From a phage: 64,000 bases of DNA. The notes under the pieces are model-generated. The model searched no databases. It saw only the letters and a list, made by a program, of their open reading frames with translations, and was not told the DNA's origin. The DNA is taken from the sequence record NC_094493.1; one strand, 5' to 3'. Positions 21,252 through 57,475 of the stretch are shown here, piece by piece (the stretch's first letter is position 1; each line of letters starts with the position of its first letter). Made by a program: the position numbers and the translations under genes.

Positions 21252-21280
21252 TTGACAATCAGTATTTGCTATGATAAAAT
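21252..21280 (+). promoter_or_regulatory. Sigma70-type promoter (TTGACA, 17 bp, TAAAAT)
   Basis: Consensus -35, 17-bp spacer, near-consensus -10, about 30 nt upstream of the ATG at 21309. Confidence 0.5.
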
Positions 21281-21308
21281 CCACCTATCACGTGATAATG
21301 GAGGAAAC

Positions 21309-21647
21309 ATGGCGGATACAACTAAAAAGCGTCGCCGTAGAGGCAGACCTCTGAAAGAGGAGTCCAACGCCATTCAGCTAGAGAAGAACATCCTTGATAT
21401 GAAGGAATCTTTTATAGCGATGGTTCCAGAAGCTCACAAAGTTTTAAGAGAGCTGATGTTGGACCCGAAAACCAAACAAAATATTCGTCAAAGCATTGCA
21501 GAGTATGTTCTTGATAAGGCAGACCGAATGCAGGAAGAATATGATGAGATGTTTGGTGAAGAGGAAGAGGTGGTAGTGGAAGAGGCTGAAAAACCAGCAC
21601 CTTTTATGCCATTTACTACAGAAATACAGCCTGTTAGCAATAGCTAA
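21309..21647 (+). CDS. Hypothetical basic/acidic protein (112 aa)
   Basis: Start moved to ATG after GGAGGA RBS; N-terminal KKRRRRGRP basic patch, acidic C-terminus. Confidence 0.4.
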   Translation: MADTTKKRRRRGRPLKEESNAIQLEKNILDMKESFIAMVPEAHKVLRELMLDPKTKQNIRQSIAEYVLDKADRMQEEYDEMFGEEEEVVVEEAEKPAPFMPFTTEIQPVSNS

Positions 21648-21656
21648 AATATTTTC

Positions 21657-21685
21657 TTGACAAACTTTGCTTAACAGTGTAATAT
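21657..21685 (+). promoter_or_regulatory. Sigma70-type promoter ahead of the tRNA cluster (TTGACA, 17 bp, TAATAT)
   Basis: Read directly from sequence, about 60 nt upstream of the first tRNA. Confidence 0.5.
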
Positions 21686-21743
21686 TGTAAACATGGTCTC
21701 CCACCTTTTCTGGCGGCTAAGGTGTAAAAGAAAGCCACCCAGT

Positions 21744-56500: not shown

Positions 56501-57403
56501 ATACAGGTAGACTCCGCAGGGAATAAATATGTTGCAGGTATTCAGTTGGGGATGGAAGGGTCTGGAGGCCAAGTTCAATCCTACTTCATGGTTAGTGCAA
56601 ACAATTTTGCGGTATACAACCCAGGAAATGGAACAGCAACCCTTGCTTTCGCAATCAAGAACAACCAAGCGTTCTTGAAAGACGCTTTTATAGAGAATGG
56701 CACGATCTCCTCTGCCAAGATCGCACAAGAAATCTCGTCAAACAACTACGATGGCAACGGGTACCATAAATACGGTTGGTATATTAACAAGAACGGGCAC
56801 GCCCAATTTATGGATGTGTGGGTGAAAGGCAACATCAACGCTAGTTCTGGTAACTTCACAGGGGCAGTTAACGCCACTAGTGGTACCTTCCGTGGGGATG
56901 TTTATGCCAATAATGGTAGCTTTAGGGGCACCATAGATGCAACCGGAGGTACCTTCCGTGGTCGTGTAGAAGCTTCTGTTATCCGTGCTAACCAGTTCGA
57001 AGGTGCAATTGTTGCACACAGGACTTACGGGGATTGTGCTCCAGTATATAACTCCCAGCAAAGGGTTTGCCGTTGGAGGTGGAGATACGTAGATAACGTT
57101 TCAGGTCAGGGTAAGAACGTAACATTCTTCTTTAAACTGAATGGTACTCTTGCCAGCTCCCAACTGAATGCATGGATAGCTGGTCATCAGATCCTTGCTG
57201 GCAAGAAGTATTTTAACGACAACAACGGCATGTGTGCGGTAGGGATAACAGGTCTGGGTGAACAAACTATAGACATTGTTATCGAGATTTACACACCGTG
57301 GTCAACGTCAAGCGTGACAGGTGTCACAATCTCCTGTCCTACTGTGATAGTAAGTCGTTCAAACTCTAGCTTCCAGGGACCTTGGAACGAGTCTCACGAC
57401 TAA
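53564..57403 (+). CDS. Lambda J-like central tail fibre / tip attachment protein
   Basis: VKQGYFAITLIPH, YYWYIRTTNAFGSSQFVE, KYVAGIQLGMEG and SYFMVSANNFAVYNPGNG parallel lambda J blocks as recalled; coiled-coil repeats in the distal half. Confidence 0.6.
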   Translation: MPIAMIDNIVASARSSSYDWNASKAALADSLNTVTTRTLDKIFEGNKSYRSQQDRQKLLRSSAAPCSVVYGKTRTSGLLAFLEQDRDRTLHCAIVLANHPLEDIEDILIDGNPISSYGDLVSWELHNDRKTSDPFMGTHCPSWSPDMIGRGISWLRASFRFDPNKFPFGLPNVTLVKVGKKCYDPRISKEVYTNNAALVILDYLRTYLKCPDETINWESFKEAANICDEAVKNADGTSERRYTINGEFDMDEAPASIMAEMLKACGADLSYVAGKYGLLVGAYYGPATMTLSEDCVCGEVKIYPEASFDKRSNTITGRFTSPTKGYSETDFPSVFVPEWIEKDGERKIIDIDYRFVTSPYQAQRVSAIFLRRARAGRIIEVTCNMRGFKFKPGRYVTMDLPSIGIVGQEMRVLEWEFTKKGGVKVKLRQDAKEWNDATGQLPDSGDVDIPISPSGVAQPQNFRYSVLQAGEITHGVLAWDNVGTYAQNIVQVRKNGEIVWTAQTVEQFVRVEGLTKGSYTATVVATSYKGGVSPEAYCEFNIQAPEAPVSVEVKQGYFAITLIPHSRDLASVSTQYDFWTSGMTRLPDTSDATVTSKATRMGVGSTWTSEGLQNDKVYYWYIRTTNAFGSSQFVECAARCYTSIEDLMPQIDAEFKKTETYKELMSTLDSSIEEVENRVTELNRYMDGRVDEAFQQLGDRIGAVVTETTQKFEDVNGNITALDRKLVAAQNKFTNDLNTESGRLASLIETTNKATTDLLNKKTEALDEKLVAAKGELVEQIEGVESGYLAGDKTLDGKINTQRTELDASILSTNQATVDLLNRTSETLDQKISQTNATVSKNYTTLDGKITTAKTDLNTLIANTNKATTDLLNQKTSALSEQITSARGEISTNKQAIDALDGKLTSTKTALDATISDTNKATVDLINGTASAIRQELAVAKQEIMDDVGDVSEIRAAVATTSKAVTDLEGKVNAQWGTKIQVDSAGNKYVAGIQLGMEGSGGQVQSYFMVSANNFAVYNPGNGTATLAFAIKNNQAFLKDAFIENGTISSAKIAQEISSNNYDGNGYHKYGWYINKNGHAQFMDVWVKGNINASSGNFTGAVNATSGTFRGDVYANNGSFRGTIDATGGTFRGRVEASVIRANQFEGAIVAHRTYGDCAPVYNSQQRVCRWRWRYVDNVSGQGKNVTFFFKLNGTLASSQLNAWIAGHQILAGKKYFNDNNGMCAVGITGLGEQTIDIVIEIYTPWSTSSVTGVTISCPTVIVSRSNSSFQGPWNESHD

Positions 57404-57411
57404 CCTTTAAA

Positions 57412-57437
57412 GCCCCGCTTCGGCGGGGTTTATTTTT
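57412..57437 (+). terminator. Rho-independent terminator
   Basis: GCCCCGC-TTCG-GCGGGGT followed by TTATTTTT. Confidence 0.6.
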
Positions 57438-57446
57438 ATGCTCAGA

Positions 57447-57475
57447 TTGACTATTGTTACAAAATTTGGTAAAAT
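57447..57475 (+). promoter_or_regulatory. Sigma70-type promoter (TTGACT, 17 bp, TAAAAT with upstream TG)
   Basis: Read directly from sequence. Confidence 0.5.

Follow-up and report, generated by a model that had tools for sequence, protein, structure and literature searches.

Two classes of host-type promoter-like elements in an rV5-like Escherichia coli phage

The closest described system is that of phage rV5. Its promoters and terminators were predicted by Kropinski et al. (2013, Virol J 10:76; GenBank DQ832317 / NC_011041), who took the genome-wide spread of promoters to suggest that modification of the host polymerase is unnecessary, pointed out a late motif, TggTAaAAtA, remarked on the resemblance to T4 late promoters, and reported that homologues of gp55, gp33 and gp45 are absent from rV5. 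In their Table S4 for rV5, P064 is labeled 'late promoter', and GenBank records carry rV5-type sites as annotated sigma-70 promoters. In Certrevirus, which belongs to the same subfamily, the early/middle promoter AAAA(N3-4)TGTTGAC(N17-19)TATAAT was found in the early and middle regions only, and no phage RNA polymerase was found (Buttimer et al. 2020, PMC7344957). A comparable picture is given by Felix O1, which is lytic, has no polymerase of its own and carries TTGACA/TATAAT host-type sites before both early and late genes. Phage T5 is likewise lytic, lacks a polymerase of its own and carries such sites before both early and late genes; its sigma-70 promoters are very strong, and one of them, PN25, serves as the model -10/-35 promoter in the literature on gp39. 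Felix O1 and T5 belong to different phage groups, and no late-class TGnTAAAATA motif is described for them. In the Thermus phages P23-45 and phiYS40, and in T4 with AsiA, the early or host promoters are of the -10/-35 type and those used later by the phage have an extended -10; P23-45 gp39 and T4 AsiA inhibit the former but not the latter, and gp39 is, in addition, an antiterminator at intrinsic terminators.

The window, i.e., the whole 64,000-nt stretch of DNA analyzed here (record NC_094493.1), belongs to a Vequintavirus, an rV5-like E. coli myovirus, with 95-98% identity to rV5 and its relatives; relative to rV5 itself it is a separate isolate, about 95% identical. An initial annotation had flagged near-consensus promoters between positions 21252 and 57475. 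Judged by sequence, what was flagged is genuine: the sites are conserved, promoter-like and of the type used by the main RNA polymerase of the host, and they are ordinary, known as a prediction, since they were predicted and published for rV5 in 2013. One-for-one counterparts in the window were found for the rV5 promoters P75, P74, PtRNA, P64, P56, P51, P48, P40, P36 and P30, and for the terminators t064ABC, t060, t052, t050, t049 and t041. The hexamers were identical in the alignment to rV5, and the sites match entries P036, P040, P048, P051, P056, P064, P074, P075 and PtRNA of Table S4. The finding itself matters little, because it re-derives a published prediction already present in the public annotation; what is added is the comparison between genera and a TTG signal at -35. 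The site list has a practical value, as therapy collections make wide use of rV5-like phages.

A complete sigma-70 promoter anatomy, comprising a TTG at -35 with a spacing of exactly 17 nt, the TG of an extended -10 and a TAnnnT -10 hexamer, is supported for these elements. The -35 box is a full TTGACA or TTGACT at 20640, 21252, 21657, 35866, 37776 and 57447, and TTGnnn only at 26190, 27863, 32380, 41016, 51936 and 63778; the -10 hexamers are TAAAAT, TACAAT, TATCAT, TAATAT and TAAGAT. The sites lie 12-40 nt 5′ of ribosome-binding sites and start codons, in the same direction as the genes. All five sites given as examples in the initial annotation (21252, 21657, 37776, 51936 and 57447) are located where it had placed them, and the exact 17-bp spacer was borne out at every listed site between 21252 and 57475. 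The count of at least ten sites was about right: nine are intergenic and co-oriented with the genes in this range (21252, 21657, 26190, 32380, 35866, 37776, 41016, 51936 and 57447), and a tenth, 27863, is kept across genera and lies just 5′ of a likely protease start; 20640 and 63778 fall just outside the range. The TTGACA-like -35 holds for 21252, 21657 and 37776 (TTGACA) and for 57447 (TTGACT), but not for 51936 (TTGCGT, 3/6), and a TG 5′ of a TAAAAT -10 was found at 21252, 37776, 51936 and 57447, but not at 21657 (TAATAT, without TG).

The promoter-like sites listed here are all on the + strand. P75 (20640..20668; TTGACA-17-TGaTAAGAT) lies 5′ of a small ORF at 20720, is annotated in rV5 as 'Sigma70-type promoter P75', and its hexamers are unchanged in 7 relatives. 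P74 (21252..21280; TTGACA-17-TGaTAAAAT), also annotated in rV5, precedes a 112-aa ORF (21309-21647) and has the best matrix score, 18.0; among the related phages it differs in the spacer only. The site annotated P(tRNA) in rV5 (21657..21685; TTGACA-17-TAATAT, without TG) would serve the tRNA cluster at 21744-22556. The remaining elements, apart from one associated with an insertion (35866, see below), are of the class that we call late. P64 (26190..26218; TTGCCA-17-TGgTACAAT; P064) lies between the terminase and portal genes, and the only variation that any hexamer shows within the genus is at position 3 of its -10 (C/G). P63 (27863..27891; TTGCAA-17-TGaTAAAATA) lies 5′ of a prohead-protease-like gene, whose true start is likely ∼27911, just 3′ of the element. 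This site is missing from the list of Kropinski et al. 2013. In the phage Gotham record, a promoter is annotated at the equivalent site, and EC152, KB57 and PBES02 have TTGCAA-17-TGnTAAAAT at this portal/protease junction. P56 (32380..32408; TTGCTT-17-TGgTAAAATA; P056) precedes a neck gene with its real start at about 32427, and P51 (37776..37804; TTGACA-17-TGgTAAAATA; annotated P51 in rV5) precedes the tail-assembly-chaperone gene. P48 (41016..41044; TTGTAA-17-TGaTACAAT) follows the terminator of the tape-measure gene. Further downstream are P40 (51936..51964; TTGCGT-17-TGgTAAAATA; P040), P36 (57447..57475; TTGACT-17-TGgTAAAATA; P036), located 5′ of a baseplate-wedge gene, and P30 (63778..63806; TTGCAT-17-TGtTAAAATA; P030), just beyond the range from 21252 to 57475. 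The late-class sites lie ahead of the operons for the portal, protease, neck, tail chaperone, baseplate and tail fibres.

The sites were scored with our own sigma-70 weight matrix, and the expectation was derived from 60 Markov simulations. At a score of at least 15.5, 15 sites were observed versus 0.4 ± 0.6 expected, and at a score of at least 14 there were 21 sites versus 2.5. Of the 17 sites that fall in the 29 non-coding segments, 16 were co-oriented with the genes and only 1 was antisense (binomial p = 1e-4). The sequence TGNTAAAATA occurs 6 times, versus 0.92 expected, in all cases on the + strand and 5′ of late genes.

In the alignment of the genus, 1/144 hexamer columns was variable, compared with 36/641 columns in the spacers and 20-nt flanks (Fisher p = 0.008). 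As judged from this difference, the promoter-like elements are under purifying selection. The pattern extends beyond the genus. Seunavirus EC152, Mydovirus KB57 and Certrevirus PBES02, with sheath proteins that are only 54-59% identical, carry TGnTAAAAT at the same four junctions between genes; EC152 and KB57 are closely related and should not be taken as independent evidence from two genera. The homologues of P56 in these three phages read TTGATT/TTGCTT-17-TGgTAAAAT, and, again in these three, TGnTAAAATA lies 5′ of the homologue of the baseplate gene that follows P36. At the post-tape-measure junction, a terminator is followed by TTGTTT-17-TGaTAAAAT in EC152 and KB57, by TGcTAAAAT in PBES02, and by TTGACA-18-TGaTAAAAT in the phi92-like phage PHB05.

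The initial annotation merged two promoter classes. The early/middle class, which is mostly outside the range from 21252 to 57475, has an upstream A-tract, (TG) and TGTTGACA, with a full TTGACA -35 and a TATnnT -10. Its architecture, i.e., A-tract, TG and then TTGACA, is that of the Certrevirus motif. The sites in front of the structural genes form the other class, which is not described in Buttimer et al. 2020 (PMC7344957) and reads TTGnnn-N17-TGnTAAAATA or, with its variants, TTGnnn-N17-TGnTA(A/C)AAT(A); the extended -10 is always present and the -35 is usually weak. The TG extension was found at all nine sites in the late region of A147 and at each site of the late class in the window, versus 10/30 sites elsewhere. 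A Fisher comparison of the classes with score-thresholded sites is biased, because a weak -35 passes only together with a good -10 and TG, and the class separation rests on threshold-free motif counts over the whole A147 genome, which are free of that bias. TGNTA[AC]AAT occurs 7 times, always in the sense direction, in 2.2 kb of late non-coding DNA versus 3 times in 11.2 kb elsewhere, and TGGTA[AC]AAT occurs 5 times in late non-coding DNA versus 0 elsewhere. When 29 late-class sites were aligned on the -10, a TTG at 17-nt spacing, which had not been a selection criterion, carried 1.3, 1.8 and 1.3 bits, with neighbouring positions at 0.4 bits or less; the conserved TTG suggests that the -35 may still matter in the late-class promoters. 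This class resembles the extended -10 promoters of E. coli, in which a TG lies one base 5′ of TAnnnT and the -35 may be weak or partial. It differs from them in the conserved TTG at -35 and in a much narrower, nearly fixed -10, TAAAAT followed by A.

Several intrinsic terminators, all on the + strand, are interspersed with these elements. An intrinsic-terminator-like hairpin with a T-tract (26236..26255; t064ABC in Table S4 for rV5) lies between P64, about 18 nt upstream, and the portal start at 26287; the same order, P64 and then a terminator, is annotated in phage Gotham. Terminators were also found after the tail-tube gene (35827..35850; t052), the tape-measure gene (40983..41002; t049), the tail-fibre gene (51904..51923; t041) and the second long tail-fibre gene (57410..57431). 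A hairpin with a T-tract precedes the promoters at 35866, 41016, 51936 and 57447. The initial annotation had paired each of its promoters with an upstream terminator, which is the case for two of its five examples (51936 and 57447) and not for 21252, 21657 and 37776. Two strong terminators have no promoter behind them: one after the major capsid gene (30782..30805; t060, -24.7 kcal/mol), with the next gene at 30839, and one directly 5′ of the tape-measure gene at 38636 (38585..38618; t050, -24.2 kcal/mol). The layout of the former is the same in other genera, and that of the latter is kept in EC152, KB57 and PBES02.

The full rV5 record has no annotated RNA polymerase or sigma gene, and its large proteins are all otherwise assigned. 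In 173 non-late ORFs (45-330 aa) of the nearest complete genome, scanned with Pfam, there was no match to a polymerase or sigma factor, nor to the AsiA, MotA, sigma, gp33 or gp55 families; the matches considered are complete for part A2 of the scan and, for part A1, are the best 25 of 40 families, which include everything better than E = 7.6e-4. The negative Pfam and annotation result would be compatible with remote homologues. The gp11 protein, proposed to be 'Srd-like', is an HNH endonuclease in the current annotation. Among the small genes between the early and late blocks, PHROGs revealed a replication-initiator-like protein and spanins, the others having no assigned function, and no transcription factor. 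T4 late promoters (TATAAATA; gp55, gp33, gp45) also place an A/T-rich motif of the -10 region before structural genes, but they lack the TG extension and the -35 TTG seen here. Promoters of this type were rejected, since TATAAATA occurs in the window five times, at chance level and only on the - strand. A known RNA element in the non-coding stretch 5′ of P74 was likewise rejected: Rfam at gathering thresholds detected only tRNAs in the window, a permissive Rfam scan of 19200-21320 gave one chance-level match, and folding of the GC-rich segment 20985-21250 reached a z-score of only -2.0. The searched literature holds no transcript 5′-end mapping, time-course or in vitro data for Vequintavirinae, and the sole paper in which RNA-seq and Vequintavirinae are mentioned together deals with a T5-like phage.

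The best explanation, to which we assign a probability of about 0.7, is that the sites are working Vequintavirus promoters, read by the host sigma-70 holoenzyme, in two classes. The late sites would depend on the extended -10, through contacts with sigma regions 2 and 3, and on a minimal TTG contacted by sigma region 4. The intrinsic terminators would partition the late region, and transcription would restart wherever a late-class promoter comes behind a terminator; the T-tract of the terminator would then occupy the position of an UP element 5′ of the restarting promoter. The terminators without a promoter, one behind the capsid gene and the other ahead of the tape-measure gene, probably just reduce downstream expression by letting part of the transcription through. 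Against this explanation, late sites with a full consensus such as P51 and P36 should fire immediately on unmodified host polymerase, which fits poorly with the presumed late expression of their genes, and a terminator so close behind P64 is odd for a productive promoter. The two-class picture raises the question of what delays the structural genes if the host polymerase reads them directly. The proposal that host polymerase is used had already been made in the initial annotation, and it agrees with the sigma-70 anatomy, the purifying selection, the annotation of rV5 and the rV5 paper. Its further claim, of host polymerase rather than a late sigma factor, is not supported, given that most early genes are of no known function, with ∼150 rV5 proteins unassigned, and that there are two promoter classes, and 'very strong' was a guess from the match to the consensus, as the -35 boxes of the late class are mostly weak (TTGCGT, TTGCTT, TTGTAA, TTGCAT).

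That the sites are mere look-alikes in AT-rich intergenic DNA, with the late genes served by read-through from a few upstream promoters, is very improbable. Any AT-rich DNA does yield many sites in a consensus scan, and the total for 40001-60000 equals the shuffle expectation (36 vs 35.0), but the high scorers exceed expectation ∼40-fold, those in non-coding DNA lie on the sense strand, hexamers are kept while spacers drift, and positions are kept in other genera. It is possible, if rather unlikely, that unmodified sigma-70 polymerase acts alone on strong constitutive promoters, with timing set by copy number or mRNA stability and no phage switch. Kropinski et al. raised the same idea, Felix O1 has been described likewise, sigma-70-like sites are present in early, middle and late regions, and there is no recognizable polymerase, sigma or T4 gp33/45/55 homologue. 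Such a reading, however, leaves a distinct, subfamily-wide late class with mostly weak -35 boxes unexplained; the Certrevirus authors see the full sigma-70 motif in early and middle regions only and expect a takeover of the host polymerase, and ∼150 rV5 proteins are of unassigned function.

We regard it as unlikely that the late class needs a phage factor, either a small protein acting against initiation that depends on the -35 or UP element, which would silence host and early promoters and spare extended -10 ones, or an unrecognised late sigma or activator that reads TGnTAAAATA. The two-class architecture is kept across genera, every late site has the TG and a near-invariant TAAAATA, unlike the early TATnnT, and the late motif was noted by Kropinski et al.; gp39 and AsiA are precedents for blocking one promoter type and sparing the other, and antitermination of the gp39 kind would suit the promoter-less terminators. 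Against this, the families of known factors were unmatched among the 173 ORFs, the 'Srd-like' gp11 candidate is now an endonuclease, the T4 late motif is at chance level with no match on the late strand, and the -35 TTG argues that contact with sigma region 4 persists, which would be unnecessary if region 4 were displaced. The likeness to the P23-45 and AsiA systems is one of layout only, not of membership: no gp39 or AsiA homologue was detected, and the late sites keep the -35 TTG. A tentative and rather doubtful extension, drawn by analogy with AsiA and gp39, is that the class TTG-N17-TGnTAAAATA is subfamily-wide and that a small phage protein switches the host polymerase from the early class to the late one; the class separation is what such a switch would lead one to expect. 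The putative protein might also aid read-through at the promoter-less terminators. If true, it would be a new polymerase-remodelling factor and a new example of phage reprogramming of the host polymerase, and would concern the therapeutic phages of E. coli, Klebsiella, Cronobacter and Salmonella that make up this large group.

At P51, a 9-bp inverted repeat (TGCACCATA/TATGGTGCA) flanks the -10. The promoter is invariant in the genus and the repeat in all relatives, so that conservation is neutral on a role as operator.

Relative to rV5, the window carries an inserted homing-endonuclease gene (616 aa; 35924-37774), also present in A147, which has its own promoter-like site (35866..35894; TTGACA-17-TGgTATCAT) ahead of it. 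The boundary of the insertion lies immediately after a resident TTGACA.

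The five promoter sites cited in the initial annotation (starting at 21252, 21657, 37776, 51936 and 57447) read as it had described, but the -35 box at 51936 is TTGCGT, with 3 of 6 matches. A loose promoter scan gave 55 sites in 20001-40000 (34.2 ± 5.8 expected) and 36 sites in 40001-60000 (35.0 expected); since the latter count is close to expectation, the raw number of loose matches is uninformative, and it is the high-scoring sites that carry the promoter signal. A sigma-70 weight matrix that combined both hexamers with a 16-18-nt spacer and a TG bonus gave 15 sites scoring at least 15.5 in the window, versus 0.4 ± 0.6 in simulations, and 21 scoring at least 14, versus 2.5 expected. 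In the non-coding DNA, which makes up 5.6% of the window, 16 sites scoring at least 12 were co-oriented with the genes and 1 was opposed (p = 1e-4). Furthermore, TGNTAAAATA occurred 6 times (0.92 expected), always on the + strand and directly 5′ of a structural gene. We conclude that the promoter feature is real.

A 20-kb slice of the window (21000-41000) matched 776 phage records, the best being from the genus Vequintavirus at 95-98% identity (rV5, MiataMamis, EdH4 and 'Campylobacter phage A147'). The rV5 record is the reverse complement of the window + strand. Genes up to ~17.7 kb are on the - strand (DNA ligase, exonuclease, Sir2-like and others), and from ~17.8 kb onward all are on the + strand: small ORFs, tRNA-like genes, spanins, a split terminase gene, and then the structural genes in the order portal, protease, capsid, neck, sheath, tube, tape measure, baseplate and tail fibres. 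Eighteen UNVERIFIED-flagged records named Campylobacter phage, A147, C15 and C12 among them, share 95-96% identity with this genus of E. coli phages, and their host label (as in L003, L011 and L012 (MG065644.1)) is almost certainly wrong. Among the seven tRNA-like genes (21744-22556, + strand), the 99-nt gene at 22213-22311 has a 4-base anticodon by ARAGORN and an Rfam tRNA score of 35.5 bits; its homologue is annotated as tRNA-Lys in phage Gotham and is unannotated in rV5. The terminase large-subunit gene lies in pieces over 23660-26186 (including 23660-24409 and 25401-26186), with an HNH endonuclease ORF (24523-25218) between pieces; the rV5 annotation joins three pieces (ORF64ABC).

Twelve window promoters were aligned with those of seven relatives within the genus (rV5, Gotham, A147, EI-SP-GF, ECO111 5-P, C15 and C12). 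Only 1 of 144 hexamer columns varied, at -10 position 3 of P64 (26190), the least constrained position, versus 36 of 641 columns in the spacers and 20-nt flanks (Fisher p = 0.008). A comparison between genera is more informative on site function; it covered the late regions of Seunavirus EC152, Mydovirus KB57 and Certrevirus PBES02, with sheath-protein identities of 54-59%. In all three, TGnTAAAAT was found at the same junctions: portal/protease, 5′ of the neck genes, behind the terminator that follows the tape-measure gene, and 5′ of the baseplate-wedge gene. In a phi92-like phage of another subfamily (PHB05; sheath identity 28.6%), the tape-measure gene is followed by a terminator and then TTGACA-18-TGaTAAAAT, and the portal junctions have TTGACA-based sites. 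For the protease-like gene, the longest ORF begins at 27758, overlaps the portal gene and would engulf the conserved promoter at 27863-27891; the gene more probably starts at an ATG near 27911, which has GGGGA as its ribosome-binding site, and the Gotham annotation agrees.

The promoters form two classes, not one. The complete A147 genome, rebuilt from three loci, was scanned. Outside the structural block nearly all sites had a full TTGACA or TTGACT, often with an A-run and (G/T)TG directly upstream of it and a TATnnT -10, and only sometimes with TG, and the nine structural-block sites had TG in 9/9, an AAT end in 8/9 and a full -35 in 3/9; this comparison is biased, since sites were preselected by a total-score threshold, and bare motifs were therefore counted. 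Late non-coding DNA (2.2 kb) contained 7 copies of TGNTA[AC]AAT, always on the sense strand, versus 3 in 11.2 kb elsewhere; for TGGTA[AC]AAT the counts were 5 versus 0. Independently, AAAA(N3-4)TGTTGAC(N17-19)TATAAT was found to be limited to early and middle regions in Certrevirus (PMC7344957). When 29 late-class sites from four genera were anchored on the -10, TTG, which was not a selection criterion, appeared at exactly 17-nt spacing with 1.3, 1.8 and 1.3 bits, and an A was favoured 3′ of the -10. The late class is therefore TTGnnn-N17-TGnTAAAATA and, judged by this motif, belongs to the sigma-70 extended -10 promoters, its -35 being minimal.

An element devoid of a -35 was rejected, as TTG is kept at 17-nt spacing, and so was a T4-type late promoter, whose exact motif occurs at chance level and on the wrong strand only. 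The initial annotation had proposed host polymerase rather than a phage polymerase or late sigma factor. The full rV5 annotation contains no RNA polymerase or sigma factor (two small 'transcriptional regulator' calls are present), and no Pfam match to sigma, anti-sigma, AsiA or MotA families was obtained among 173 non-late ORFs of A147 (45-330 aa; for one of the two ORF sets, among the best 25 of 40 families, the others all having E > 7.6e-4), which supports dependence on the host enzyme; the host-polymerase reading appears reasonable, but a novel small factor may exist among the many unannotated early proteins. The class difference points to a possible switch of the AsiA or gp39 type, in which -10/-35 promoters are shut off while extended -10 promoters stay active; gp39 is an antiterminator as well. 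A simple copy of that mechanism is disfavoured, because the -35 TTG is conserved and no homologue is detectable. The distant relative Felix O1 is described in a comparable way, with host-type sites ahead of both early and late genes and no polymerase of its own. Kropinski et al. (2013) named rV5 gp11 Srd-like and proposed it as an anti-sigma decoy and possible early/late switch; gp11 (L013 6787-7722; 311 aa) is now an HNH endonuclease in RefSeq, and the proposed switch is therefore doubtful.

Most likely, the host sigma-70 holoenzyme would initiate at the listed sites, terminators would divide the late region into units, and transcription would restart at any late-class promoter located behind a terminator. 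The terminator T-run would then lie at about -40 to -55, the UP-element position, and might play an UP-like role; a terminator with no promoter after it would probably only attenuate downstream expression. Two among the strongest, at 30782-30805 (3′ of the capsid gene) and 38585-38618 (5′ of the tape-measure gene), lack a following promoter, and both are conserved between genera. The claim that every promoter has an upstream terminator was overstated: it holds at 35866, 41016, 51936 and 57447, but not at 21252, 21657 or 37776, and at 26190 the order is reversed, with a hairpin (26236-26255) between promoter and portal start. This arrangement (26190-26286), with the hairpin ~18 nt past the P64 -10, is unusual and is shared by rV5 and Gotham; P64 transcripts would reach the hairpin within their first ~40 nt.

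Both the promoter feature and its host-polymerase reading are already in the literature and database annotation, and are re-derivations here. In GenBank, rV5 is annotated with a 'Sigma70-type promoter' at the homologous positions (P75, P74, P(tRNA), P51 and others), and the Gotham record shows PhagePromoter and ARNold annotations there too. Kropinski et al. (2013) listed 33 sigma-70-like promoters in rV5 (11 with extended -10) and 20 terminators; their Table S4 gives identical sequences for P036, P040, P048, P051, P056, P064, P074, P075, PtRNA and the terminators. They suggested from the genome-wide promoter spread that host polymerase modification may be unnecessary, and by MEME found TggTAaAAtA in 8 copies upstream of late genes 27-66, which they compared to the T4 late motif, noting the absence of gp33, gp45 and gp55 homologues. 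The present check adds the between-genera conservation, the late-class -35 TTG signal, the extra conserved site at 27863, the hybrid promoter at 35866 and the terminator-pairing correction.

That hybrid promoter (35866-35894) precedes a 616-aa HNH/homing-endonuclease gene (35924-37774; PHROG 559, DUF723 and treble-clef zinc finger) between the tail-tube gene and P51. The insertion is present in A147 and absent from rV5 and five other relatives compared; it starts immediately 3′ of a resident TTGACA, and the promoter therefore combines a resident -35 with an imported spacer and -10. At P51, a perfect 9-bp inverted repeat, TGCACCATA ... TATGGTGCA (37783-37823), flanks the -10 and likely start site and looks like an operator; its invariance in 7/7 relatives speaks neither for nor against such a role. 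A putative replication initiation protein gene (18856-19206; PHROG family match, E = 2.5e-80) is immediately followed by four direct repeats of 21-22 nt (19272-19363), each holding the palindrome GTCCGT..ACGGAC, and then by a very AT-rich stretch. The region 18856-19600 is a candidate replication origin; the rV5 paper (Kropinski et al. 2013) was unable to locate an origin. Between a small ORF and P74 lies a GC-rich non-coding stretch of ~290 nt (20963-21251), with no Rfam match and a fold z-score of only -2.0; its last 60 nt carry only four scattered substitutions among relatives.
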